Translations under genes and position numbers: made by a program
Shown: positions 27,763 through 50,835 of the stretch, in pieces
How positions within the stretch are numbered: position 1 is the stretch's first letter
Layout: the number at the start of each line of letters is the position of its first letter
Notes under the pieces: generated by a model
The model's database searches: none
Told to the model about the DNA's origin: nothing
What the model saw: only the letters and a program-made list of their open reading frames with translations
DNA from: Promethearchaeota archaeon
GTDB lineage: Archaea > Asgardarchaeota > Lokiarchaeia > Sigyniarchaeales > SOKP01
DNA: 64,000 bases
Direction: 5' to 3'
Assembly: GCA_030599585.1 (NCBI GenBank)
Contig: JAUVNS010000008.1
Span: forward strand, 96,001-160,000

Positions 27763-30423
27763 CTAATACGATGGCATTATAAATAAAGAAATAGGAAAAA
27801 ATGGAATAAAAAAACTAATAGGTAAAAAAATCGTTAGTATAAATATAGAGATTAATCCAGGTAGGAGGCTTCCGGTTTTTAAATAAATATATCCTAAGAT
27901 TAAGCTAATAAAGCTTGAACATATAAAATCTAAAATAACTAATGATATAATATAGGAAGATGAAACACCGGGAGATATATATGAAAAAATGGGAATGATG
28001 TAGACGAAGGCTTTTACGATGATAGTGATGAAAGTTTGCAATAATAGCGCCCATAATTGGGAGTATTTACCTACTAACATTGTTAGAATGATACCGCGAT
28101 GTAGTATCTCCTGCCAATAACAAAAAGTAAAAAGAGTTAATAAGATAACTATTATCTGTAAGTAACTTAAATTCAGTGAAGGTAAGTCTAATATTGCTTG
28201 AGTTATGAAGTAGATAATGAAGATCGAAGGAATAGTAAATAATATTGCTTTAATATGCTTTTTAAAAAAATTACTTTTCACCCAACTTAACCCTATGCAA
28301 TCTAAATATTGTTTAAACGGTTGTTTCCCATATGGAAGTCCAACATACTTAGGAATGACATATAACCATATAAAACCATAAAGAAGATTTGGTACTAAGA
28401 TAATTAATAAATTTTGAATTAACAATTTCAGATCTTCACTAAAGGAACGCGGGAGAAAAAAGGGATATGGGTCTATCATGGAAGAAAGGATTGCCATAAC
28501 TAAACTTATAAGAAAAAACAATAAGAAATTGATGATAAGTAGGATTACTATTGATAACCAAATATGTTTAGAGAATATTGTTGGGACAATATTTTTTTTA
28601 AGCGTTTTTTCCCTTGAAAAAAAGTCCTTATTAAAATCAGTCCATTTAGTTATGAGCCCTCCTTGATAAACTGGCAACATTATGTTAAAAATTAAGACTG
28701 AAATTAAGAATCCTAATACTATTACTGCCCAAAATAGAACCAACATACTATTGCTATCCTGGTGGTATAAAAAATTTATCCCAAACGATGTTATCCAAAA
28801 AAAAAGGATGTATGGCACAGAGATAATCAATGTCCATTTATACATTCGGTTTTTTGGATTATAATCTTCTAACACGTAAAATTTTGCTCTCTTTTTTCCG
28901 AAGAAGTTGATTTTTAAAATAAAAATGATTAATAAAAATAACCAAGCAAAGGGTAATGTGAAAAGGAAATTAATGAAGATAGATACAAAATTTGGAGAGC
29001 TAAGGTAAAGTAAAGATGGTAAGAGAGTTGCGCATGTTTGGATAAAATAGATTAATAATAATTTAGGTTTTGCTTGGTTTCGTGGAATTAGTGGTAAAGC
29101 GGCTATAATCGATTCTCCCCGATTATCAAAATTAGTTAAACCATAAACTATTAATCCTGAAAGAATAGGGCTAAAAGTTAATATACCAATCCAATTTTGG
29201 AAGAACCCTCTATCAAGTAGATTTATTGTTCCGATATCTTTAATCCCAAATGCTACGATAAAAATAAAAGAAAGCATTATCGGCATAATAATTGACATAA
29301 AAACTTTAAGATCTCTTGTAATTATGCGAAGATCCTTGCGAATATAAGCAATAAACGGTACACTAGGTTTTACATTCACTTTCACTTCTAAATGAGATGG
29401 TTTAGTAGTTTTTATTATGTTGATAGCTTTAAGCTTTGAAACGCTAATTCTCTCAATTGCTTTAAACGCTTTTCTAGATATCCCATATGTTATTATAACT
29501 AATAGTGCAAATCCAATTAGAGTACTTATCCAAAGTTGGAGAGATGCATGATTAGGCGCGATTAATAAAGAAATTAAAAAACTAGAATTAAATGGGAAAG
29601 GAATAAAACTCAAAATAATATTAATTATGGATTGGTATTCGGAAGCTGTAAATATAATGTAAAACGTCTCTATTGAGCTAAGGAACCATTGAATCAAAAC
29701 ATAACTACTGATGATGATAAAAATGTAACTCAGAATATTGATTAAGCGAATAAATAAAGTTCTTTTTGAGCTCTTATCATTTATATCTAAAATTCTATTT
29801 ATTCTTTCTCCAAATAATAATAAAATGCTAAATGATAATATCATATTCACAAAAGAAATTCCAAGGCATACCAAAAAAATTACTATATTTTGACTTCCAA
29901 TTAACATAGTAATCGGAAAGGCAAAAACTAAAACAATTATTGGTAAATCATAACTTCGAAATAAAGTAAAATAAACTATTCTCAAATATTTTCTTTTTGA
30001 AATGGGTAATGTCTCGAACCACTCAAAAATTTTCCCTGAGGTTATCATTGCTGTATCCAACATCCCCATTACAAAAAAACTTAGAAACTGTAAAGAAAAA
30101 TAAAAGGAAAAAAGTAAACCTCCTATAAAATAAACACCTTCAATTGATGTCGAACCCTGCGAAATAAGTCTGACAATTTCGAAATAGGTTAATAAAGGAA
30201 GTACAGGTATTATTCCAAATGTGATCGCAAAAAATAATTTTGTTAAAATAACTTTAAATTTTAGTCTAAACGGATGGCGGATATATTTTTCTAAATAGTA
30301 AGATTTAGCTCCTCCCTTCGATAATACTAATTCTTCAACAAGCAATTCTTTACTTGCATATTTTGCTAAACTAAATGATGTAAGAACCTCTTCTACCTTT
30401 AGATTTCTTCTTTTTATCTTCAT
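27763..30423 (-). CDS. ABC-2-type exporter permease-like protein fused to a degenerate CPBP (CAAX/Abi) domain
   Basis: TLPIS and ALPL..R..AKPK EAA-like loops, YIRKDLRIITRD linker; C-terminal WQEILHRG and YIYLKTGSLLPG. Confidence 0.65.
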   Translation of the reverse strand: MKIKRRNLKVEEVLTSFSLAKYASKELLVEELVLSKGGAKSYYLEKYIRHPFRLKFKVILTKLFFAITFGIIPVLPLLTYFEIVRLISQGSTSIEGVYFIGGLLFSFYFSLQFLSFFVMGMLDTAMITSGKIFEWFETLPISKRKYLRIVYFTLFRSYDLPIIVLVFAFPITMLIGSQNIVIFLVCLGISFVNMILSFSILLLFGERINRILDINDKSSKRTLFIRLINILSYIFIIISSYVLIQWFLSSIETFYIIFTASEYQSIINIILSFIPFPFNSSFLISLLIAPNHASLQLWISTLIGFALLVIITYGISRKAFKAIERISVSKLKAINIIKTTKPSHLEVKVNVKPSVPFIAYIRKDLRIITRDLKVFMSIIMPIMLSFIFIVAFGIKDIGTINLLDRGFFQNWIGILTFSPILSGLIVYGLTNFDNRGESIIAALPLIPRNQAKPKLLLIYFIQTCATLLPSLLYLSSPNFVSIFINFLFTLPFAWLFLLIIFILKINFFGKKRAKFYVLEDYNPKNRMYKWTLIISVPYILFFWITSFGINFLYHQDSNSMLVLFWAVIVLGFLISVLIFNIMLPVYQGGLITKWTDFNKDFFSREKTLKKNIVPTIFSKHIWLSIVILLIINFLLFFLISLVMAILSSMIDPYPFFLPRSFSEDLKLLIQNLLIILVPNLLYGFIWLYVIPKYVGLPYGKQPFKQYLDCIGLSWVKSNFFKKHIKAILFTIPSIFIIYFITQAILDLPSLNLSYLQIIVILLTLFTFCYWQEILHRGIILTMLVGKYSQLWALLLQTFITIIVKAFVYIIPIFSYISPGVSSSYIISLVILDFICSSFISLILGYIYLKTGSLLPGLISIFILTIFLPISFFIPFFPISLFIMPSY

Positions 30424-30580
30424 TTGAAACCCAGAATAGCCATCTCTAAAGTAATATTAATCATGTAAAAATATAAAATTAATCCAATTCCAATTAGTAT
30501 TGTTGGAATAAATAGTAATTTCTTCTCATTTTCACTCATTTCTCTTTTGGTATGCTTTTCCTTATTAAAGATTCTGTAAT

Positions 30581-30880
30581 TTATTGATTCTTTAAAGATT
30601 TTCTGAATGCTCGAACCTTACTAAATGTATAAGAAAATATACCAATACATATAGCACTGGCAAGAAAGTTAGAGATGGACAATGATAAAGTATAGGAATA
30701 TGTAAGTTTATCGTATGGAAAAATATTAGTCCTGGCATAAATTAAAACAGGAACTGCAAAGAATATTGCTACTGCGAAAAATGAGGAACCAGTACTACTC
30801 AGAACACTTAAATAAATTGCCCGTTTTTTCGTTAACCTTATACCGAGCCATCTTATTTCATTATTTTTGTTTTTTTCCAT
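30581..30880 (-). CDS. Small 2-TM membrane protein
   Basis: 99 aa, two hydrophobic helices, GGGTGA SD upstream. Confidence 0.7.
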   Translation of the reverse strand: MEKNKNNEIRWLGIRLTKKRAIYLSVLSSTGSSFFAVAIFFAVPVLIYARTNIFPYDKLTYSYTLSLSISNFLASAICIGIFSYTFSKVRAFRKSLKNQ

Positions 30881-31080
30881 AGTTTTATTTTCACCCTTGT
30901 GTGTTATTTTATAATTTCATTCTTTGTTATTTAACCATTTTGTTACCCTTCTATTTGATATAAAAAACTGAAGTGAGAATGTGTTCCGGAGTTTTTATTG
31001 ATTTTTTAAAATATAAAAAGCTTTAGAGAAAAAAGGTTCGAAAATAACATTTTAAAAATAAAGGTTAAAAAAAAAATAAT

Positions 31081-31155
31081 TTAATACCTTACTGCGGCAA
31101 TATGATATCCCGTTGGGTTTAGGATTGATTTGGCTCCCTTTTCTTTTCTTTTCAT
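31081..31155 (-). CDS. Small peptide A1 (24 aa) MKRKEKGAKSILNPTGYHIAAVRY
   Basis: SD GAGGT 8 nt upstream of ATG; 15/24 identical to paralog at 32964. Confidence 0.8.
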   Translation of the reverse strand: MKRKEKGAKSILNPTGYHIAAVRY

Positions 31156-31250
31156 ATTCTTTTACCTCGTTTTTTTAATTTGGTTTTGTTTTGTGTAGTA
31201 TTTGTCGTTAAATTGTGAATTTTTAATTATTCTAAAAAAAATTATAATTA

Positions 31251-31325
31251 CTAAAATATATCAAAACGGTCAGGAATATATCCTGCGTTTCTGATTATTA
31301 TCGTTCTTTTCTCTTTTTCTTCCAT
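31251..31325 (-). CDS. Small peptide B1 (24 aa) MEEKEKRTIIIRNAGYIPDRFDIF
   Basis: SD GAGGT upstream; tandem stops TAG TAA; 17/23 identical to paralog at 33155. Confidence 0.8.
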   Translation of the reverse strand: MEEKEKRTIIIRNAGYIPDRFDIF

Positions 31326-31389
31326 CTTTTTTTACCTCGCTTTTTATTCTTTTTTTTATTGGTTTAAAAAATATTAAAAAAAATTTATA

Positions 31390-31464
31390 TTAAAATCTAA
31401 AAACTAAATTCTCTGGATTGAAGTTTTTCGTAAATTTAACTTCTTTTACTCTGGTTTTACTCAT
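31390..31464 (-). CDS. Small peptide C1 (24 aa) MSKTRVKEVKFTKNFNPENLVFRF
   Basis: SD AGGAGGT upstream; 17/24 identical to paralog at 33310. Confidence 0.82.
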   Translation of the reverse strand: MSKTRVKEVKFTKNFNPENLVFRF

Positions 31465-31723
31465 AAGCTTTTACCTCCTTTTTTTTTTTTTTATTTTTTA
31501 TTTTTGTTATTAAATTATAATATCCATAAAATCCATATTTAGTTTTCAGATCAAAACTCTGAATGGACTTTTAAATATTTATTGAACTGTATTAGGAAGA
31601 AATCGATTTGGCAGGGTAAACGACATCAAAAATAGCAGAAATTAAGAATTCAAAAAAACAATAAAGGATCGTTATTTACATCGACAGATAAACTAAGTGA
31701 GAAATAACCAAAATTCCAGAGTA

Positions 31724-32623
31724 TTAACGGTATAAATTGGTCCCTCTTCCTAATATTTCTTTCACAACTCGTTTGTTTGCCTGAAAAGGATTTATAATCT
31801 TCTTTTTTGGAAATTCTAAAGGAGGTGTAAAGACTTGTTCTTTTTCGATCAGTAAATTATAGGCTTGATGTAAGAGAAACTCGAGATTGATAACGTCTTC
31901 GTTGTTATAGGCAAGCAATGTATCAAGATATTCTTTCTCTTTAGTTTGTTTATATTTTTTCCACAAGAGCACAGCAGAATAGCCGTCCAAGTCTTCAAGA
32001 GCTCCGCGCGAAATCCCAAACCTTTTTTCAATTTTTTTTAACCCCCCCTTTATCTGTAATCTCCTGAGTAAAAAACACACATCATAATGGATCTGGTTAA
32101 AATCGATTCCCATTTCGTGTTGGATGAATGGAATATCAAAAGATTTACCGTAAAAAGTTGTTATTGCTGGAAATTTCGAAATAAACGCGGGAAATTCGTC
32201 TAAGTTATCACCTCGGACAAAATCGTGAACGCTCACTCCATCGTAAACGGCAATAGTCGTTATATGGCTATAGTGAGGGCTTAAACCCGTGGTTTCAATA
32301 TCAAGGTAAGCAATACTGTCAATTAAGTTTGGAATCATCTTCCAATGTTGTATTTTGGGTATAAGGCTTGTTAATTGGGAAATATCGAGGATTTTTAGCG
32401 CTTCTATTGCTGAATTGACACCATTCCATATTGCGTTCCATTTTTGTTTTGGAAACAGTTCAGGACACTGCTTTTTTATCACATCGTTCCAACAGCATAT
32501 CCCTAATTCTCTGAGTGTCGTTTCTGCCTTAACGCCAATCCCTTTTACAAAAGTAAACGAGTTAAACAGTGGATGGTCATTTTCTAAAGATAAATCGTCG
32601 TCTCTTATCACGATTTCTTTCAC
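31724..32623 (-). CDS. RNase H-like (YprB/DEDD) exonuclease with N-terminal helix-hairpin-helix
   Basis: VKGIG HhH; YLDIETTG, FYGKSFDIPF, HYDV, GGLKKIE, YNNEDV motifs. Confidence 0.88.
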   Translation of the reverse strand: MKEIVIRDDDLSLENDHPLFNSFTFVKGIGVKAETTLRELGICCWNDVIKKQCPELFPKQKWNAIWNGVNSAIEALKILDISQLTSLIPKIQHWKMIPNLIDSIAYLDIETTGLSPHYSHITTIAVYDGVSVHDFVRGDNLDEFPAFISKFPAITTFYGKSFDIPFIQHEMGIDFNQIHYDVCFLLRRLQIKGGLKKIEKRFGISRGALEDLDGYSAVLLWKKYKQTKEKEYLDTLLAYNNEDVINLEFLLHQAYNLLIEKEQVFTPPLEFPKKKIINPFQANKRVVKEILGRGTNLYR

Positions 32624-32707
32624 ACTATTAGTTTGAGATGTATTAAAGATAATTTTTTAGTAATAAGTTACAATTTGAAATCGCATATTTAAACTTTTTG
32701 GGTAATG

Positions 32708-32738
32708 TACGGAGCGTATCTAAATAATACGCAGCGTA
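32708..32738. promoter_or_regulatory. Two TACG-N3-CGTA palindromic boxes 20 bp apart upstream of the exonuclease gene
   Basis: TACGGAGCGTA (32708-32718) and TACGCAGCGTA (32728-32738); TTTAAA box at 32688-32693. Confidence 0.5.
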
Positions 32739-32776
32739 AGTAAAGTAAAACATAAATATTGGTTCCAACTTTTAAC

Positions 32777-32830
32777 CAAAACAAAACAAAACAAAACAAA
32801 AAAACAAAACAAAACAAAATCAAAACAAAA
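32777..32830. repeat. (CAAAA)n pentanucleotide tract; (UUUUG)n on the minus strand, possible terminator
   Basis: About 10 imperfect CAAAA units downstream of peptide cassette 2. Confidence 0.75.
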
Positions 32831-32963
32831 TCTCTGCTTTTGCATTCGTTCGCGATTGGTTTATCATTTTAGAAGAGATTTTATTTCCCCATCTGAATCT
32901 CTTATTAAAAAATTGGTTGTAATTCTAAAAATAAAGTGGTTTAAAAATAGTTAAAAAAAATAA

Positions 32964-33038
32964 TTAATATCTTAATGTTGTAATATGATATCTCGTCGGG
33001 TTTAGGATTGTTTGGGTATCCATTTCTTTTCTTTTCAT
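32964..33038 (-). CDS. Small peptide A2 (24 aa) MKRKEMDTQTILNPTRYHITTLRY
   Basis: SD AAGGT upstream; paralog of A1 with synonymous changes. Confidence 0.78.
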   Translation of the reverse strand: MKRKEMDTQTILNPTRYHITTLRY

Positions 33039-33154
33039 ATGCTTTTACCTTGGTTTTTTAATATGGTTTTTTAATTATGTGTAGTATTTGTCGTTAAATC
33101 GCAATTTTTTATTGTTATTAGGTTATTATTATAGAAAAAATGTGTTAATTACAT

Positions 33155-33226
33155 TTACATATCAAAACGGTCAGGAAAATATCCGCCGTTTCTGATGATT
33201 ATCGTTCTTTTCTCGCTATTTTTCAT
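33155..33226 (-). CDS. Small peptide B2 (23 aa) MKNSEKRTIIIRNGGYFPDRFDM
   Basis: SD GAGGT upstream; paralog of B1. Confidence 0.8.
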   Translation of the reverse strand: MKNSEKRTIIIRNGGYFPDRFDM

Positions 33227-33309
33227 TTTTTTTTACCTCGCTTTTTTTTTGGGTTTTGTTTATTTTCTTTTTTGGTTATTGGTGGAAAAATTATTAAAAA
33301 AAATTATTT

Positions 33310-33384
33310 CTAAAATCTTAAAACTAAATTTTCAGGATTGAAGTTTTTCGCAAATCTAACTTCTTTTATTTCGGTTCTTTCCAT
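33310..33384 (-). CDS. Small peptide C2 (24 aa) MERTEIKEVRFAKNFNPENLVLRF
   Basis: SD AGGAGGT upstream; paralog of C1. Confidence 0.82.
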   Translation of the reverse strand: MERTEIKEVRFAKNFNPENLVLRF

Positions 33385-33457
33385 GATTTTTTTACCTCCT
33401 TTTTTTGGTTTTTTTTTTTTTTTTAATTCCTGGTGTTTTATTTTTAAAATTTTTTAA

Positions 33458-33745
33458 TTAAAAATTGATTAGATTATTTCTATATGCCAAAATTCTCGTA
33501 TCAAGGTTCGCATTCACAGCGTTTATGCATTTGACTTCCTCGTTAATTTTCGCATTTAATTTAACTTTATTGAACACTTTCCTAAGTTTCTTTTTAATCG
33601 ATTGTGATTCAAGTTTTTCAGTCGTAGCCTTCCTGACCAGCACCTGAGGCCGTAGCACCTCAGGTGCTTGGAGTTGGAAAGGAACCTGGCTATCGATGCT
33701 GGCGCTTTTTTCCTCTGCTTGTTTTTTTATTGTTGCTTGAGCCAT
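33458..33745 (-). CDS. Small basic hypothetical protein (95 aa), first gene of peptide cassette 2 transcript
   Basis: ATG at 33745 (MAQATIKK...) preceded by GTGAT SD-like site; ORF track starts at GTG 33757. Confidence 0.65.
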   Translation of the reverse strand: MAQATIKKQAEEKSASIDSQVPFQLQAPEVLRPQVLVRKATTEKLESQSIKKKLRKVFNKVKLNAKINEEVKCINAVNANLDTRILAYRNNLINF

Positions 33746-33811
33746 TTTTCTTATCACATCCTTTTTTTTTTTTTTCAGTTTTCTTTTTTTTGTTTCTAAT
33801 TTTATTTAGTT

Positions 33812-33887
33812 CCGAAGTTTAATATAGTTTGACTTCTTGAAGTTCGAACGAACTTCGAACTTCGGTGCGAATCGCAAACCTTAAATA
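33812..33887. promoter_or_regulatory. Divergent promoter with nested inverted repeats
   Basis: GAAGTTCG-AA-CGAACTTC (33839-33856), CCGAAGTT/AACTTCGG (33812-33819/33858-33865), TGCGA-A-TCGCA (33866-33876); TATA-like boxes at 33818-33826 (-) and 33881-33886 (+). Confidence 0.65.
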
Positions 33888-33909
33888 CCTACAAGACCAT
33901 AATATAACT

Positions 33910-36876
33910 ATGAGTATAACAAAATATCCACCTGAAGGTATAATTACACCTATGAAAATCAACAAAGATTTTGAATATATTATACTCTGGATGCTCTATA
34001 ACAACGATCACTGCACTTGGTCTGAATTTAAGTCAAAACCTGTAAACATTAGTCCAGCGACATTATCAAAATACTTGAATATTTTGATAAGTAACGGTCT
34101 TATTGAGAAGGAAAAGAAAGGAGAGTATAGGATTACCCCTGAAGGTCGGATACAATATGCGGAGTTACAGGTTAAAGGCTCATTGGAGAAATCTCTGAAT
34201 TATCCTCCTGAGATTATAACAAAAACTAGGGAATATGATCATTGGATTCTCTGGATGCTTTATAATAATGCGTATTGTAAGTGGTCCGATTTTATTGAAC
34301 CCCCTCTTTCAATCAATCAATCTTCATTATCAAAAAACCTGAATCTTTTATTAGATAAAGATCTCATTGAAAAAAATAATCGTGAGTATAGAGTTACAAG
34401 GGACGGTGAAATAGAGTACTTCAAAGTGTTAAAAACATATGATTTAGATCGCCAATCAATATTGGACGAAGAAAGCAAAAGAGTTGAAGTCATTACAGAT
34501 AAGGTTGGCAAATTCTTTGACGAATACAAGATAGAAGATGATGAGATTAGATATCGTTTCTTGAACATGGTCTTAAGGTTAGATTATACTAAGGTTGAGG
34601 CTACTTTGTCAGACGAGGTAGATTTTGATAAAATTTTGTTATTTTTATCGATAAATCACCCTAACAATTATCCTAATTATATTACAGCAAAAGATTTTGC
34701 GTTAGAGTATGATATAAAGCTAACAACATTGGACTTTTTTATAGAAAAAATCGTGGAAGATAAACTTTACGCGATTAAATTCTTTAAATTAAATGTTGAC
34801 AGTAAAATTACATATTACATCCAAGCTGAAGAAAGATTAGAAAAAATGTTAGGCGTAATCATTGAAGACTATATTAGGAAGTTCACATATTTGAGTAAGT
34901 TTCAGAAAAAAAATGGAGATCAATATCAAACGCCTGATATCAACCAATTACTCTACAATGTCCTAGAAGATTTATGTAATAATCTATTCAATGAAGGATT
35001 GAAACAGCCACTCAGGAAATTTTTAATCGAATATATTGAACATTTAGCATATAAATTTGAAACAGAGAAGAGTTTAATTAACCATACAGATAAAATAAAG
35101 GGGATTGCGTTTCAAAATGTGTTTGAAGTAATACAAAGCTTTGGAACATCGGAGACGGTGAATACGATAAGCACCCCTCCTGATAATGAATCCTTTTACT
35201 TTTTGCACAATAGAATTTTTGACACATTGGACATACTGTATTTATCGAAAATAGATTATATTCGAACCGCTGAGTTCAAAGAGACATATTTTCCGAAAAA
35301 TGGAGAATTTTTAACGAAGATTGAGCGTAAATTGGCGAAAGGAAGAGTATTGAAAGTAAACGAACTGCTTACTGCTAATCTTAAGAATCTAAGCGAAATA
35401 GAATTGATGATCCTGAAGGATTTAATTTACACATATAACGGAGAATTAGAAGAGTCACTAAACCTAACAAAAGAAATCATAGAAGCTCATCCTAACGAAT
35501 ATGTAGGGTATCTTTTTCAAGCCATTTCATATTTTTTTATGGGAAGATTCAAGGAAGCGTTGGATATTATCGAATTAGGTTTGAACATGTCCTATAATGT
35601 CTTGTTGATCTCTCAAAAAGCGCAAATTCTCATTAATTCCGATCACAAAAAAGCACTTGAAGTCGTAGATGAAGTTATTGAAGATTATCCAGATAATTTC
35701 GCTTTAGCACGCACGAAATTTCTAATTGAAATGACGGATAAAGAATGCTGCATACGAAATATTGACGAACCTTTGAATTTGATAAATTCACTTATAAGCT
35801 CGAATCCTGACGATTCAGAACTCTCAATACTAAAAGCGATATTATACATTGTGACCAATAAGTATAAGGAAGCAAAAAACTGGATTAAACAGACCGTAGA
35901 ATTCAATTTACTTAAAGGTAGTCCGAGAGTTGATACTGCTGCGTACTTAATACTATCATATTCATATTTAGCTAGGGGTAAATTTGAAAAGGCTTTAGAT
36001 ATTGTCAGCAAAGTCAGATTTCACTATCCAAATCACCCACTTTCACATATTATTACTGGTTTAGTTCACGGATTCAACATAGTCTACAAATTCGATCCAA
36101 GTAAAGCAAACAAAGAGCTATTTAGAGAAGAATTTCAGAAAGCAGAAGCAAATGAACAGAGTAAGAAGAAGTTGTCTAGGTATTATCAACTGGAAAGTTA
36201 TATTTTGAATGAGATAGATGGTCTTGAAGAGGCAATAAAAGTAATCGATAAAGCAATTAAATTAAGTCCGGAGCACTACGATATTCATAGCACAAAAGCC
36301 CATCTATATTTAGCCTATAGCGATAAAGGAGAAGAAGTTTTAGCATTTTACGATGAATTATTAGAGAAATTCCCTACTGAAGATAAAAGCATTCGCCAGA
36401 TGAAATCATTCTCTTATTTTGCGATGGGAAATGTAACAGAAGGAATTAAAATTCTTAAAGAAGGTCTTAAAGTTTACCCTGATGCGATAGGAATGTTAAA
36501 CAACCTCGCCGTATTCTTAAGTGATACAGGAAAATTTGAAGAAGCTTTGGAGACAATTGAAAAAGCTATTGAAATTGACCCACTCGAAGCAAATCTATAC
36601 GATACATACGGAGAAATATTAATGTTTGGTAAGGATTACAAATCAGCTATAGAAAAATTTTATCAAGCGTTAGAGATGAGTCCAACGGGATGGTTTAGGT
36701 TTCATACATTCTTAAAACTCTCGAAATGTTATCAAAGTCTAGGAATGCTTGAGGAAGCTACAACCTGCCACGATAAAGCAAAAATTTTAACGGAAAAAGT
36801 TATACCTGGAAAAAGAAAGGTATATTTAGATCAATTAGAAGCGAGTTTTGAAGATTTAACCACTTCTGAAAAGTAA
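33910..36876 (+). CDS. Tandem winged-helix DNA-binding domains + C-terminal TPR array (putative transcription regulator)
   Basis: Duplicated YPPE...ILWMLYNN..C.WS.F...LSK.LN.L....LIEK...EYR.T..G units; TPRs such as LNNLAVFLSDTGKFEEALETIEKAIEIDP; ATG 33910 preferred over GTG 33865. Confidence 0.85.
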   Translation: MSITKYPPEGIITPMKINKDFEYIILWMLYNNDHCTWSEFKSKPVNISPATLSKYLNILISNGLIEKEKKGEYRITPEGRIQYAELQVKGSLEKSLNYPPEIITKTREYDHWILWMLYNNAYCKWSDFIEPPLSINQSSLSKNLNLLLDKDLIEKNNREYRVTRDGEIEYFKVLKTYDLDRQSILDEESKRVEVITDKVGKFFDEYKIEDDEIRYRFLNMVLRLDYTKVEATLSDEVDFDKILLFLSINHPNNYPNYITAKDFALEYDIKLTTLDFFIEKIVEDKLYAIKFFKLNVDSKITYYIQAEERLEKMLGVIIEDYIRKFTYLSKFQKKNGDQYQTPDINQLLYNVLEDLCNNLFNEGLKQPLRKFLIEYIEHLAYKFETEKSLINHTDKIKGIAFQNVFEVIQSFGTSETVNTISTPPDNESFYFLHNRIFDTLDILYLSKIDYIRTAEFKETYFPKNGEFLTKIERKLAKGRVLKVNELLTANLKNLSEIELMILKDLIYTYNGELEESLNLTKEIIEAHPNEYVGYLFQAISYFFMGRFKEALDIIELGLNMSYNVLLISQKAQILINSDHKKALEVVDEVIEDYPDNFALARTKFLIEMTDKECCIRNIDEPLNLINSLISSNPDDSELSILKAILYIVTNKYKEAKNWIKQTVEFNLLKGSPRVDTAAYLILSYSYLARGKFEKALDIVSKVRFHYPNHPLSHIITGLVHGFNIVYKFDPSKANKELFREEFQKAEANEQSKKKLSRYYQLESYILNEIDGLEEAIKVIDKAIKLSPEHYDIHSTKAHLYLAYSDKGEEVLAFYDELLEKFPTEDKSIRQMKSFSYFAMGNVTEGIKILKEGLKVYPDAIGMLNNLAVFLSDTGKFEEALETIEKAIEIDPLEANLYDTYGEILMFGKDYKSAIEKFYQALEMSPTGWFRFHTFLKLSKCYQSLGMLEEATTCHDKAKILTEKVIPGKRKVYLDQLEASFEDLTTSEK

Positions 36877-36908: not shown

Positions 36909-38039
36909 TTATTTTTTATGTTCTTTTACGAGTTTTACCAAGTCTGCTTTCCTATAAGAAGCGAGCACTTTAAGATCGTTTTCAATACAATATTCTTTTA
37001 GTTTTTTTACCGTCCACTTGTTATAATCAAGCGGTTGTTCAGTGATTTCTTGAAGGGGTCCACCTCGGATGAGGTTAATAATTTGCGCTTTTCTATAGGA
37101 TGTTGGAACTGAAATGTTGTTTTCTTTGCAGTATAGTTTCAATTTCTTTACTGTCCAGGAATTGTAGTCTATTTCGTCTTTCTCTTCTATAATTTTTTCT
37201 TCAATTTTGGAAGTATCAAGTTTTTGGAGAATTTCTATTCCCTCAATACTACCAGAATTGGAATCAACATAGAGTCTTATAGTTCGATCTTTAAGTTCAA
37301 TTGGTCCTTCTGGTATTGAACTAACAGGTTCCCATTCGGTTTCCTCTATCTCTTTCCCGAAAACTTTTGCTTTTTTGACTGCTGCTCCGTAAATTTGAAA
37401 ATTCCCTAAAATCAAATTTTGTCTTTTAAAAGTAGCGGGAACTTTGTTTTTCACAATTTTATTAATCAATTTTTTATTATCTAACTTAGGTGGTTTGATT
37501 GTCTGTTGAGGTTTAGGGGCAATGACATAATCCTTCTTTTTTCCAATTAATGTGGATTTAACGTCACCATTAAGAGTCGGAGGTGGACCTTGCCATCCGT
37601 GAACCTTTTTATCTTTAGTTTCTGCAGATTCCTTGAGAGAAGACTGGTGTAAATGTTTAAACTCTATAGAGTTTCTTTCTAAGATTTCAGGAACTTCGGC
37701 TGTTTTAAAATTAAAGGCTCTCATAAATTCGTTGGGTTCATCTCCTTGATCTACTGAAATAATCTTACATCGATGGAAGTGGCTGTTAACAACTAAATCG
37801 TTTTGTAATTCAGCGGCAATCCGAGATGCTATAAATTTTTTCCTGACATGTGAATTGACGCCTTTCCAGATATAGATTCTCCTTAACCCCTCCTTGACAA
37901 TTATTAACACTTGGTTCGGATCTAATACATCTTGACCATTATTCAACAGAAAGGTATCTTCAGAAATATCTAACTTGACTTTTTCTCCGGTACTTTCTAG
38001 TCCAAAGATCATAAAGTTCTCATAAATTTCAGACATCAT
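36909..38039 (-). CDS. Gelsolin-domain protein with two C-terminal SAP/HeH(Rho-N)-like domains
   Basis: VLIIV...IYIWKG.NS...KF.AS..A..L...VDQGDEP.EF gelsolin signature; YNSWTVKKLKLYCKEN...RKAQII and YNKWTVKKLKEYCIEN...RKADLV repeats. Confidence 0.8.
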   Translation of the reverse strand: MMSEIYENFMIFGLESTGEKVKLDISEDTFLLNNGQDVLDPNQVLIIVKEGLRRIYIWKGVNSHVRKKFIASRIAAELQNDLVVNSHFHRCKIISVDQGDEPNEFMRAFNFKTAEVPEILERNSIEFKHLHQSSLKESAETKDKKVHGWQGPPPTLNGDVKSTLIGKKKDYVIAPKPQQTIKPPKLDNKKLINKIVKNKVPATFKRQNLILGNFQIYGAAVKKAKVFGKEIEETEWEPVSSIPEGPIELKDRTIRLYVDSNSGSIEGIEILQKLDTSKIEEKIIEEKDEIDYNSWTVKKLKLYCKENNISVPTSYRKAQIINLIRGGPLQEITEQPLDYNKWTVKKLKEYCIENDLKVLASYRKADLVKLVKEHKK

Positions 38040-47537: not shown

Positions 47538-47745
47538 ATAGAAAACCTTTACAGTTAAATTTTTGAATTTATGTCTGATGTTTAGTAATAAACATCACTA
47601 TTATTAACTTTCAAAATCTATATATAAATCCAGAGAATAAAGAAAAAGTGAATTATTTAATATGATTCTAAGGGATAGAAACTCATTTAATTTTGCGTTT
47701 ACTTCATAATAAGAATGTTTCTCTTATTTTTTAACCCTCAATCTT

Positions 47746-48573
47746 TTATGGTGCTATAATTAAAACGATGGTATAAACAAGTATCAGATTTCCTAAAATT
47801 ATACCAACATCCTTTAGTGCGGTTCTACCTAATAAATCTTGACGAGGTTTCCTGAATATATACATGATTCCAAAAGGAAAGAAAATTATAGGGAGAAATA
47901 TAATGAATTGTGTAATGATTAGTGAGATTATTGCTATGGTTAGCGATACTAAGGAAGCAATCCAAATCACTACTTGAGAAGCCTTTGGAGATAACTTAGA
48001 TAAGGAGTCTCCATCAATTAACTCATGTAGCATTTGACCCGTAAAACCTACGGATGCTACTGAAAGTAGTATTAATAACTCAAAAACAGATAGATCGGGA
48101 AAAAAACCTAAGATAATATCACCAGCATTAATTTTTATCATCATCCATGGCAATACGATATGTGAGATTCCTAAAATGATATGGTTAATGATTACTAGTG
48201 ATTTGAACAGACAATAAAAAATTACTAAAATAACTATGATAACTAAATAAATTCCTAAGATTGGATACACAACAATTCTATTCATAAAACACATGGTTCC
48301 TATTAAGAAACATGCTAACGAGATTGTAAAAATTTCTTTACGACTATAACCTTGGATTCTTTTGAGGGTTTCGCTTTCGTCTGGATCCTTCATATCTATT
48401 ATGTCATTTAAGGTATTTCCTGTAATAGCATAAAAAGCAAACCCTGTTAATATCCAAATGTGTGCGGTGATCTCATACCCATTTAAATAAACGCTTAATA
48501 AACAAGGGACAAGAACTGAAAATAAGTATTCAATTCTTAATAATTTAAATCCATTACTCACTGAAAAAATCAC
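47746..48573 (-). CDS. UbiA-family prenyltransferase-like membrane protein
   Basis: LLRIEY start, GNTLNDIIDMKD Asp-rich motif, about 8-9 TM helices. Confidence 0.7.
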   Translation of the reverse strand: MIFSVSNGFKLLRIEYLFSVLVPCLLSVYLNGYEITAHIWILTGFAFYAITGNTLNDIIDMKDPDESETLKRIQGYSRKEIFTISLACFLIGTMCFMNRIVVYPILGIYLVIIVILVIFYCLFKSLVIINHIILGISHIVLPWMMIKINAGDIILGFFPDLSVFELLILLSVASVGFTGQMLHELIDGDSLSKLSPKASQVVIWIASLVSLTIAIISLIITQFIIFLPIIFFPFGIMYIFRKPRQDLLGRTALKDVGIILGNLILVYTIVLIIAP

Positions 48574-48727
48574 TTTAAGATATCGTATAATGAATTAATA
48601 ATTAAATAAGTAAAAAAATTTAGGATTTTAGAACAAATACTCCTAAAAATCAATTAAGGAGTAGAAATCTGGATTCATTAAATTAGAAAAAGAAAGGTGC
48701 AAGGATATGGCAGGATTGATCTAATTA

Positions 48728-49915
48728 TTAAACTACATTTTCATGGTGAAATTTTTCTATTTCGTTATCATCATACCCTAATTCTAAAAGGATTTCTTTA
48801 GTATGTTGTCCTAATATGGGTGGAGATGTTAAAACCTCCCCTGGTGTGGCAGAGAGTTTAACAGGAATTCCTGTTACCCTGATTTTTCCTGCTTTCAAAT
48901 GATCGAGATCTTTGACCATGTTTCTATGGAGCACCTGCGGATCAGTAAAAATCTTATCCATAGTATAGATCGGACCACAGGGAACTCCAGCCTTTGTTAG
49001 AATATCCAGCCACTCTTGCGCAGATTTCGAACTAATTATTTTACTAATGGTAGTTACTAAATCATCCCTATTTTCGACACGTTTTGCATTTGTAGAATAT
49101 TTAGGGTTATCTATTATGTTTTCTAATCCAACAGCATGACAGAATTTTTGCCATAATTGATCGTTACCCGCTGCAATATTAACATATGTGTCATTAGCTT
49201 TGAAAGCTTGATATGGTACAATATTTGGGTGTCCAGAGCCTAAAGGTTGCGGTATTTCACCAGATGCAAAAAAGGATCCTGCCCTATAAGTTAACCAAGC
49301 AACTTGGCTATCTAATAAAGATACATCAATCAGTTGACCTTTGCCAGTTCTTTCACGATTAAAGAGAGCAATCATAATACCATAAGCTGCAAACATACCT
49401 CCGGCAATATCAGCCACCGCTATCCCCACTTTAATTGGAGGACCTCCTGGTTCACCGGTAATACTCATAAGCCCGCCCATTCCTTGTAATACTTGATCAA
49501 AACCAGGTAATAACTTGTATGGTCCATCCTGCCCAAATCCAGAAATACTCGCATATATAATTTTTGGATTTAACTCTACAACGCTCTTATAGCCTAAACC
49601 AAGTTTTTCCATCGTTCCGGGCCTAAAATTTTCAACAACAACATCTGCTTTTTTTATTAATTTTTCAATGATCTCTTTCGATTTCTCACTTTTCAAGTTC
49701 AAAGTTATACTCTTTTTATTTCGATTAACGCTCATAAAATACGCACTTTCTCCTTCTACGAAAGGAGGTCCCCATGATCTAGAATCATCTCCCCTACCAG
49801 GCATCTCTATTTTAATAATTTCAGCCCCCATATCTCCTAACATCATTGTACAATAGGGACCCGCAAGAGCTCTTGACAAATCCAAAACTGTAATGCTTTC
49901 TAGTGGTCTTACCAT
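48728..49915 (-). CDS. CaiB/BaiF family III CoA-transferase
   Basis: LDLSRALAGPY, NRNKKS, ENFRPG, ISGFGQDGP, AD, PPILGQHT motifs. Confidence 0.95.
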   Translation of the reverse strand: MVRPLESITVLDLSRALAGPYCTMMLGDMGAEIIKIEMPGRGDDSRSWGPPFVEGESAYFMSVNRNKKSITLNLKSEKSKEIIEKLIKKADVVVENFRPGTMEKLGLGYKSVVELNPKIIYASISGFGQDGPYKLLPGFDQVLQGMGGLMSITGEPGGPPIKVGIAVADIAGGMFAAYGIMIALFNRERTGKGQLIDVSLLDSQVAWLTYRAGSFFASGEIPQPLGSGHPNIVPYQAFKANDTYVNIAAGNDQLWQKFCHAVGLENIIDNPKYSTNAKRVENRDDLVTTISKIISSKSAQEWLDILTKAGVPCGPIYTMDKIFTDPQVLHRNMVKDLDHLKAGKIRVTGIPVKLSATPGEVLTSPPILGQHTKEILLELGYDDNEIEKFHHENVV

Positions 49916-50034
49916 CTCCTATTTCACTTTTCTTATATATATCATGCTTAATAATGTTATGAATAAATTATTAACTATTATAATTGAAGATTTCCATACA
50001 AAGACAATAATTTATCTTCATAGATAAAAATCAT

Positions 50035-50835
50035 CTAGAAAAACATGGTTATTGCCAAACCTATTAAAACTACTGCCACAAAAAGTTTTAAATAGAATTT
50101 CGGCATTTTTTTTGAAATTTTCGCTCCAATTATAGATCCAAAAATAGATCCTATTGATATTATAATTCCAACAATAACATCAATTTGTCCTGTAATAAGT
50201 TTTACTAACGTATTATAAATTGCTGTGAAAAAAACTATTGAAGTTGATATGGCAGTAGAATTATGAATTGGAAAGTCTAAAATAATATTAAGTGAGGGAG
50301 AGTTAATAATTCCTCCTCCAATTCCTAAAAGGTTAGCTGCAAATCCTGCTAAAATAAAATATGGAATTGATTTCTTAAAATTAGATTTATAGTCATGAGA
50401 ATCTAAAGAAAATACAATTACTTCTTCAGTTTGATTTTTTGTTCTTTTATTTGTTTTTAAAGTCTTATAAATCATATTTATTCCAGCAATTAATAAGGTG
50501 CCCGCAAAGATTATTTTTAACACATTACTTTCAACATGAACAAATGAAAATAAAATCGACGATAAAATACTCCCCAAAATTGAAAAAGCAGCGAATATTA
50601 AGGATAGACGAACCTTTGTTCTTTTTTGTCGCAAATAGGTTATAAAACCTGCTAAAGAAGAAAAAAGAATTATGAAGGTGCTTGTATCTACTGCAACATT
50701 AATAGGGAAAAGAAAAAGGAGCGTCATGATGGATACAAAGAACACTCCTCCGCCTATTCCGGCAATAACAGAGACAATACCGGATAATAGACCCAGTAAA
50801 ATTAATAAGGAGACAAGATAGAAAGATAATTCCAT
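50035..50835 (-). CDS. TauE/SafE sulfite exporter family protein
   Basis: Two GIGGG motifs, about 8 TM helices. Confidence 0.9.
   Translation of the reverse strand: MELSFYLVSLLILLGLLSGIVSVIAGIGGGVFFVSIMTLLFLFPINVAVDTSTFIILFSSLAGFITYLRQKRTKVRLSLIFAAFSILGSILSSILFSFVHVESNVLKIIFAGTLLIAGINMIYKTLKTNKRTKNQTEEVIVFSLDSHDYKSNFKKSIPYFILAGFAANLLGIGGGIINSPSLNIILDFPIHNSTAISTSIVFFTAIYNTLVKLITGQIDVIVGIIISIGSIFGSIIGAKISKKMPKFYLKLFVAVVLIGLAITMFF

Follow-up and report, generated by a model that had tools for sequence, protein, structure and literature searches.

A 64,000-nucleotide (nt) stretch of the genome of a Promethearchaeota archaeon (assembly GCA_030599585.1, contig JAUVNS010000008.1, positions 96,001 to 160,000; hereafter, the window) contains, between positions 31081 and 36876, a gene for a 988-amino-acid (aa) protein with tandem winged helices and a long array of tetratricopeptide repeats (TPRs), and this gene diverges from a series of very small genes on the opposite strand. 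The reading that we favor, with a probability of roughly 0.55, is that the large protein is a transcription factor that is specific to this lineage, regulates itself, and controls an operon of micro-proteins. Regulator, operator, and micro-protein operon constitute a module that is conserved across two genera, with an operator that occurs once in the genome. Literature searches on Asgard small proteins, archaeal RRNPP systems, Asgard winged helix-turn-helix (wHTH)/TPR regulators, and archaeal peptide quorum sensing turned up no account of it.

In the mechanism that we propose, the 988-aa protein would be a one-component transcription factor of one Lokiarchaeia-type family, whose tandem winged helices bind a unique palindrome, GAAGTTCG-NN-CGAACTTC, that lies between two back-to-back TATA-like boxes. 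From this site, it would govern the expression of its own gene as well as that of the divergent operon P95-C2-B2-A2, which comprises a gene for a 95-aa protein (P95) followed by three micro-genes. The micro-proteins, which are polar and have a charged N terminus, a short beta-strand/turn core, and an aromatic C terminus, would act inside the cell, and the long TPR solenoid would be the sensor part of the regulator. The feedback loop would be closed if the operon products bind the TPR part through their C-terminal tails.

Conservation of the regulator and its divergent operon

In all 13 loci of the genus that have enough flanking sequence, an orthologue of ~985 to 995 aa diverges from an operon of the form P95-C-B(-A). 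A more distant set comprised 16 loci from two genera (g1 and g12), with regulators of 41 to 50% identity; 13 of these loci have at least 400 nt of flanking sequence. A P95-like gene (69 to 95 aa, with the start M-V-Q-V-L-E-K) occurs in 11 of the 13, as does at least one co-oriented gene of 21 to 46 codons (likewise 11 of 13). The small genes at the distant loci encode either B-like peptides, with a run of three or four Ile/Val residues and a tail such as SRYI.Y, or zinc-ribbon proteins of the CxxC...CxxC type. An earlier, first-pass annotation of this stretch, which had proposed a peptide-sensing circuit, held that homologous regulators without adjacent peptide open reading frames (ORFs) would speak against it. 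The homologues do carry adjacent, divergent micro-ORFs, indicating that small peptide genes have been kept together with a protein that combines DNA-binding and TPR domains.

At five loci of the second genus (L049, L050, L053, L059, and L060), zinc-ribbon proteins of 31 to 46 aa replace or accompany the B-like peptides.

A palindromic operator in the shared control region

The ATG of the regulator gene (33910 to 36876, plus strand) is separated from P95 by a shared control region of ~165 nt. Within this region lies a perfect 18-bp palindrome, GAAGTTCG-AA-CGAACTTC, at positions 33839 to 33856, which together with an additional CGAACTTCGG repeat forms an operator extending to position 33865. It is the sole perfect copy in the host genome (4.85 Mb in 52 contigs), the next-best matches having at least two mismatches. 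The operator is nearly invariant in 11 aligned species of the genus, with flanks that vary, and the second genus has at the same place GAACTTCA-N3-TGAAGT flanked by CACTTCG/CGAAGTG, which is the same half-site in another arrangement. Two features of local archaeal wHTH regulators, a winged-helix domain and a conserved palindrome at a divergent promoter, are thus present, and the regulator likely binds DNA at this palindrome.

Each side of the operator has a TATA-like box. On the minus strand, an AT-rich block at positions 33817 to 33830, ~75 nt upstream of P95, contains a AAACTATA(T/A)AA block that is conserved in the 11 aligned species and is presumably the TATA box of the P95-C-B-A operon. 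On the plus strand, a conserved CTATTTAAGG block at positions 33879 to 33890 lies ~26 nt upstream of the ATG of the regulator, and this short spacing suggests that the regulator mRNA is leaderless or nearly so. The 95-aa ORF, the palindromes, and the 988-aa wHTH-TPR protein that the first-pass annotation had described were all recovered.

Six micro-genes in two cassettes

The same annotation had listed six tiny minus-strand ORFs preceded by Shine-Dalgarno (SD) sequences, and all six are present as described. Cassette 1 consists of C1 (31390 to 31464, with the core FNPxNLVFRF), B1 (31251 to 31325, with the core IIIRNAGY..R.D.F), and A1 (31081 to 31155, with a GAGGT SD, the core ILNPTGY, and the end RY), each of 24 codons. 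Cassette 2 consists of C2 (33310 to 33384; 24 codons), B2 (33155 to 33226; 23 codons), and A2 (32964 to 33038; 24 codons). The SD of each gene is GGAGGT, GAGGT, or AAGGT and ends 7 to 9 nt upstream of the ATG. Across the three families, the cores read FNPxNLV(F/L)RF in C, (R/K)TIII(R/K)N(A/G)GY.P.RFD in B, and ILNPT(G/R)YH with the end RY in A; B1 and B2 both match a hidden Markov model (HMM) of the B family. The proposed organization into two C-B-A cassettes stands, with ~75% DNA identity and the paralogous pairs A1/A2, B1/B2, and C1/C2, but cassette 1 differs from a simple tandem duplicate in having a different conserved element upstream.

Micro-genes of this kind are rare in the genome. There are 124 ORFs of 20 to 30 codons with the pattern [AG]AGGT-N6-9-ATG in 9.7 Mb (both strands), and the 2.3-kb stretch that contains the cassettes has 6 such SD-led ORFs as opposed to an expected 0.03. 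Nine of the 124 belong to the A, B, and C families, and the remainder look unrelated. Both cassettes recur unchanged on contigs of the probable source run, although none of these contigs spans positions 31468 to 31750. Public gene calls on near-identical contigs include P95 and the regulator and skip the A, B, and C genes; the homologues of the peptides were traced through whole-genome searches. The homologues of the local genes are labeled as metagenome-assembled genomes of Lokiarchaeota or Promethearchaeota, which, together with the gelsolin/SAP-domain protein encoded nearby, marks the host as an Asgard archaeon. No family in Pfam, NCBIfam, or PADLOC matches any of the peptides.

Of 41 genomes sampled from the genus, 16 have matches to the B-family HMM; other genera have none at an E value of ≤0.001. 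These matches are confined to short open frames of 23 to 34 codons, 27 of 28 being free of internal stops. Wherever a locus was examined, B was preceded by a C gene that has an SD of its own; an A gene lies downstream in eight cassettes, and orthologues of the A family occur in six further species. Start, stop, SD, and length of the three families are kept in more than 12 species, and insertions and deletions involve whole codons and are limited to the charged N-terminal part. The sequences evolve fast across related genomes. Summed pN/pS values are 0.40 (B), 0.50 (A), and 0.73 (C), which amounts to modest purifying selection that is strongest in the cores. On these grounds, we hold with high, if not complete, confidence that the A, B, and C micro-genes are genuine, conserved genes, and they are likely translated.

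Rather than encoding functional proteins, the small ORFs could act in cis, as leader or upstream ORFs or as pieces of a structured RNA, with their translation or folding being what counts. Such a role would fit the comparison of the two cassettes, in which noncoding parts are as conserved as the ORFs, as well as the upstream element that cassette 1 shares with unlinked cassettes, which is more conserved than the peptides, the very stable conserved hairpin in the P95 mRNA, and the invariant Ile-Ile-Ile run in B, which recalls attenuator leader peptides. It is difficult to reconcile, however, with the lack of any consistent gene downstream of the cassettes in three locus types, with amino acid cores that are kept while codons vary (pN/pS < 1), and with the occurrence of three distinct families, each with its own SD retained. 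A search of positions 30500 to 34200 against Rfam yielded nothing credible, its sole match being CrcZ at 17 bits as opposed to a threshold of 95. We regard such a role as highly improbable.

P95 and its hairpin

The first gene of the divergent operon, P95 (33458 to 33745, minus strand; ATG at 33745, with an ORF of 33461 to 33745 plus the stop), encodes a Lys-rich protein of 95 aa. Its family comprises proteins of 70 to 95 aa that start with M[AV]Q and are found at this position in 20 loci from two genera. The 74 homologues in public metagenomes are all unnamed or called "hypothetical protein." An exact look-up of the host's own P95 in public gene calls returned no match, and a 92%-identical P95 was taken in its place to reach the near-identical public contigs. 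No family in Pfam, NCBIfam, or PADLOC matches P95, and the ESM Atlas gave no usable match for it. Three scans returned a subthreshold match to HEPN_MAE_28990 (E = 0.005 to 0.026), and four P95 homologues carry a precomputed label, PF27216, for a family that is not in the Pfam copy used. One locus has the start of P95 joined without a gap to a B-like peptide, and the Ile run of B is also present in the P95 proteins of the second genus, suggesting that P95 and B may be related.

Inside P95 lies a GC-rich hairpin (33639 to 33668, minus strand) with the arms CACCTGAGG and CCTCAGGTG, which form 11 base pairs around a 6-nt loop (-32.8 kcal/mol; z = -4.9) in a genome of 31% GC, the value that also applies to the window. 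The hairpin is present in 10 of 10 loci of the genus with a P95 of the MAQA type, whereas the surrounding codons vary. Its three stem changes all lead to G-U pairs on the sense (mRNA) strand, and the region encodes the motif A-P-E-V..P-Q-V. The hairpin could be an element for RNA processing or stability, or a second protein-binding site.

Architecture and expansion of the regulator family

The regulator comprises two wHTH domains (residues 20 to 90 and 100 to 176), a third winged-helix-like domain (residues 236 to 305), a helical linker, and a TPR solenoid (residues 434 to 988). The two wHTH domains were detected by Pfam and NCBIfam, the former matching HTH_45 and MarR along with many TPR families and the latter matching Sso10a, Sta1, and Lrs14; HTH_34 was a further match, and the third domain is seen in the AF2 model. 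This model, built with 20 orthologues, has a mean pLDDT of 78, with values of >90 for most of the TPR part; it predicts a solenoid of ~27 helices and ~13 TPRs over 555 residues, joined by a poorly defined linker. Orthologues and paralogues show no variation in the recognition-helix residues of either wHTH domain, and the last TPRs contain invariant Asn and Lys residues.

In Foldseek searches with the whole model, the nearest structures were the long TPR superhelices of APC/C subunits, OGT, TTC7B, Ski3, Tom71, and LbcA, and the top 50 included no Rap, NprR, PlcR, Rgg, PrgX, or AimR protein. The N-terminal 430 residues alone had no match at an E value of ≤0.001, and their best rows were the multi-winged-helix proteins RPC34, RPC62, and TFIIIC tauB together with MarR-type regulators. 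Single wHTH domains aligned with MarR, PadR, and PhiH1-repressor-like structures with Foldseek probabilities of 0.99 to 1.0, at E values of >0.01.

The N-terminal module is largely restricted to one lineage, being present in 31 of 40 genomes of one family as opposed to 1 of 160 elsewhere (E ≤ 1e-10), and in 106 of 131 genomes of the family sample. It has also expanded, with up to nine matches of 45 to 55% identity reported per genome. The host genome encodes four paralogues of 636 to 824 aa (C21:103019-104929, C21:115870-117816, C21:259866-262340, and C20:340143-342053), all of which have the N-terminal triple winged-helix module. Each adjoins Rab/Ras-like small GTPase genes, a Roadblock/LC7-like gene, or genes for TPR proteins of 570 to 650 aa, and neither A/B/C-like ORFs nor SD-led tiny ORFs were found near any of the four. 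Because these paralogues occur without such peptides, the TPR domain of the regulator family need not be a peptide receptor. The regulator thus belongs to a lineage-specific, expanded triple-winged-helix/TPR family whose other members lie beside small GTPase and Roadblock genes, which are typical of Asgard archaea.

Cassettes that lack the operator

Upstream of cassette 1 lies a different element (USE, upstream element; 31465 to 31585, minus strand; nhmmer E = 1e-17 at C22:127465-127585), with GTTCA-type repeats and a TATA-like box. The USE is ~90 nt long, and its repeats are spaced ~11 nt apart, about one helical turn. Further copies precede two C-B pairs elsewhere in the host genome (C34:47599-47715 and C45:4969-5095); these copies are 93% identical over 87 nt, a value above the identity of their peptides. 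Weaker copies lie upstream of other genes, including a lone P95 paralogue (C8:76440-76540). The USE repeats resemble the operator half-site, and one may speculate that a paralogue of the regulator binds them. Neither cassette 1 nor the unlinked cassettes have a copy of the operator upstream, and a single operator governing one regulon for all cassettes was rejected. The presence of C-B cassettes, including cassette 1, behind a different promoter element suggests that the micro-proteins also have an operator-independent role.

The lone P95 paralogue, an 81-aa protein with an Ile/Val run (C8:76831-77076), is situated behind a 75-aa ORF and the weak USE, with no regulator nearby.

Several observations weigh against the reading that we favor. 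The two additional C-B pairs of the host (contigs C34 and C45) are distant from any regulator and are both syntenic in other species, the C gene on C45 having 32 codons, and relatives likewise contain C-B cassettes that have neither an operator nor a neighboring regulator; the peptides are thus not exclusively tied to this receptor. Four incomplete genomes (79 to 88% complete) contain B genes and no close orthologue of the regulator. P95 is deleted in two species, which retain the peptides directly downstream of the promoter, and since the peptide repertoire also differs between genera, no single operon product is an obligatory partner of the regulator. Synteny within the genus extends to the neighboring genes for a gelsolin/SAP protein and a major facilitator superfamily (MFS) transporter, indicating that part of the genus-level linkage reflects shared ancestry. 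Finally, purifying selection on the C family is weak.

Alternatively, the system could be output only. The regulator would then control the operon, and its TPR part would sense another protein or a cellular state, with the micro-proteins serving as effectors that have their own targets and fulfill the same role when produced from unlinked cassettes under other promoters. In favor of this arrangement, paralogous C-B cassettes stand beside housekeeping genes behind a different and strongly conserved upstream element; for example, the C34 cassette (47716 to 47934) lies between a 484-aa nucleotidyltransferase-like (CCA-adding-enzyme-like) gene and the gene for elongation factor EF-2 (48162 to 50414), upstream of the latter, with synteny in three or more other species. 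The existence of a lone P95 paralogue and the contexts of the regulator paralogues, which adjoin small GTPase, Roadblock, and TPR genes without such peptides, point in the same direction. This arrangement would leave unexplained, however, why all operon products share a C-terminal tail and why micro-genes persist beside the orthologue over long distances despite the turnover of their sequences. We consider the output-only arrangement rather unlikely, though it is the leading alternative to the reading that we favor.

Cassette 1, the 299-aa RNase_H_2/DEDDh-like gene, and the downstream membrane genes are missing from the corresponding place in other species, and one metagenome contig joins position 31193 directly to 33130, which represents a single-cassette form. 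From these two observations, the duplication of the cassette appears to be recent and polymorphic.

Between the two cassettes is inserted a 299-aa RNase_H_2 gene (31724 to 32623; YprB-like, of the DEDDh exonuclease type), an insertion that looks polymorphic, and a (CAAAA)11 microsatellite (32777 to 32830) separates it from cassette 2. In the region from 27763 to 30880, an 886-aa membrane protein has a C-terminal Rce1-like (CPBP) protease domain, and a homologue on a related contig matches 12TM_1. Its gene is preceded by membrane ORFs of 39 and 99 aa, is co-oriented with the cassettes, and occurs only here and on near-identical contigs. On the other side, convergent with the regulator and syntenic throughout the genus, a 376-aa protein (36909 to 38039) combines an N-terminal gelsolin repeat with two C-terminal SAP/HeH-type motifs.

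Peptide properties and the shared C-terminal tail

Inspection of the peptides revealed 7 to 9 charged residues among their 23 to 24 and hydrophobic runs of at most 3 to 4 residues, and neither a Sec signal nor a hydrophobic export segment of the SHP type was seen, in keeping with the caveat about Sec signals already attached to the first-pass annotation. No conserved exporter or oligopeptide importer is present in the neighborhood of the cassettes. For these reasons, the peptides are unlikely to be secreted or to act as extracellular, cell-cell signals.

The same properties bear on a true RRNPP-like quorum-sensing system, in which the peptides would be exported, perhaps processed, reimported, and bound by the TPR receptor. 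The layout does resemble that of Rgg/SHP, with a small gene that is divergent from the regulator and encodes a basic N terminus, and in the host and its nearest relatives, an ~890-aa protein of the 12-transmembrane (12-TM)/Rce1-like (CPBP) type lies downstream in the same orientation. Against this stand the lack of any hydrophobic stretch of more than 4 residues in such highly charged peptides, the finding that seven further species of the genus have no CPBP gene beside the cassette, the missing oligopeptide importer, and a receptor that does not have the features of RRNPP members, and we consider quorum sensing very improbable. Processing by the neighboring CPBP-type membrane protease would also be expected if the peptides were precursors of modified or bacteriocin-like products, and the 886-aa 12-TM and Rce1-like protein downstream in the host and its closest relatives is the element that would fit. 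Only a few near-identical genomes show this association, however, and no modifying or processing enzyme is conserved beside any locus type, including those of the other species of the genus examined. The peptides also lack Cys and a Ser/Thr-rich core, and there is no match in PADLOC or to types of ribosomally synthesized and posttranslationally modified peptides (RiPPs). We consider a precursor role the least probable of these alternatives.

The peptides share a feature at the other end. The last residue is F, Y, or W in 21 of the 22 peptides collected from the genus as opposed to a background of 12 to 15%, an effect that is overstated by the relatedness of the sequences. Nearly all operon products end in a tail of a basic, a hydrophobic, and then Long TPR solenoids, such as those of Hop, Tom70, and APC3, often hold the C-terminal tails of their partners, and given the shared tail, the operon's own products would be the most economical candidates for ligands of the regulator's TPR domain.

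A complex prediction for TPR residues 430 to 988 with a B peptide (from alignments of 20 rows for the TPR domain and 13 rows for the peptide) returned a score of 0.02, with a mark of 0.32, from a tool that is uncalibrated for chains of fewer than 30 residues, and it speaks neither for nor against binding. Peptide binding by the TPR domain, taken on its own, is plausible, although the odds lean against it. A more specific version is unlikely, namely that the micro-proteins bind the TPR part directly, by way of the C-terminal tail that they have in common, and thereby move the winged helices onto or off the palindrome.

Such a direct-ligand switch, if it exists, would have no described archaeal precedent among peptide-sensing one-component transcription switches. 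Its origin would be independent of the bacterial RRNPP systems and would lie in a TPR superhelix whose nearest structures are eukaryotic (APC/C, OGT, and Tom70). It would operate within cells, not between them, and with the peptides as ligands, it would extend peptide-controlled transcription switches to Archaea. If the peptides are not ligands, the module would still add conserved micro-proteins and a defined regulon in a setting where experiments are just becoming possible. In either case, the locus provides a set of regulator, operator, and targets that consists of a foldable protein, a unique 18-bp palindrome, and four small products that can be synthesized. It also provides three families of 23- to 24-residue proteins and one family of 70 to 95 residues that standard annotation has missed or left unnamed.

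Comparison with known systems

The first-pass annotation had likened the locus to the RRNPP systems of Bacillota. RRNPP receptors are proteins of 250 to 500 aa with a TPR-type domain of the RRNPP fold group, and in Rgg/SHP and ComR/ComS, a gene of ~17 to 24 codons that annotation misses lies divergent from or adjacent to the regulator and encodes a peptide with a basic N terminus and no Sec signal (PMC10075063). The analogy holds for the layout, in which small genes accompany a protein with DNA-binding and TPR domains; it does not extend to membership, since four of five testable features fail. The one feature shared is the adjacent small propeptide gene (10 to 100 aa) led by a ribosome-binding site. 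In size and fold, the regulator departs from the group, with 988 aa, a 555-residue solenoid, and no RRNPP protein among its top 50 Foldseek matches; in place of an XRE-type HTH or a Rap three-helix bundle, it matches winged-helix families only; the peptides have neither a Sec signal nor an SHP-type export segment by inspection; and the host is an Asgard archaeon, whereas RRNPP systems occur in Bacillota and their mobile elements. RRNPP membership was therefore rejected, and the locus is best described as analogous to RRNPP in layout without being a member.

Compared with Rgg/SHP and ComR/ComS, the locus has the same cytoplasmic regulator with DNA-binding and TPR-type domains and the same tiny, divergent, and unannotated gene for a peptide with a basic N terminus and no Sec signal. 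It differs from Rgg/SHP in having a regulator of 988 aa rather than 250 to 500, three winged helices rather than an XRE-type HTH, and a superhelix of ~13 repeats that is nearest to APC/C, OGT, TTC7, and Tom71. Its peptides are polar rather than hydrophobic and come in up to three families along with a 95-aa protein per operon, and its archaeal host has no linked exporter or importer.

AfsR/AfsS of Streptomyces also pairs a large TPR regulator with an adjacent small protein gene under its control. Unlike the locus described here, AfsR combines a SARP DNA-binding domain with an NB-ARC ATPase, the system has a single 63-aa product, and the host is bacterial. Among archaeal regulators, the Lrs14, Sta1, Sso10a, and MarR/TrmB-like proteins belong to the wHTH families that the regulator matches and share with it a palindrome beside a TATA box, a placement seen with many repressors and activators of archaea. 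In contrast to these single-domain proteins, the regulator has two to three tandem winged helices fused to a 550-residue TPR solenoid, and its N-terminal module of 430 residues occurs almost exclusively in one family of the phylum.

The putative sensor part resembles TPR proteins that receive C-terminal tails, such as APC3/Cdc27, which binds IR tails, and Hop and Tom70/71, which bind EEVD. In those systems, the TPR proteins have no fused DNA-binding domains, and the ligands are the tails of large proteins. Receptors of this kind are the structural neighbors of the regulator's TPR part, and the candidate ligands encoded by the divergent operon tend toward a basic-hydrophobic-aromatic C terminus, a trend observed among related sequences.

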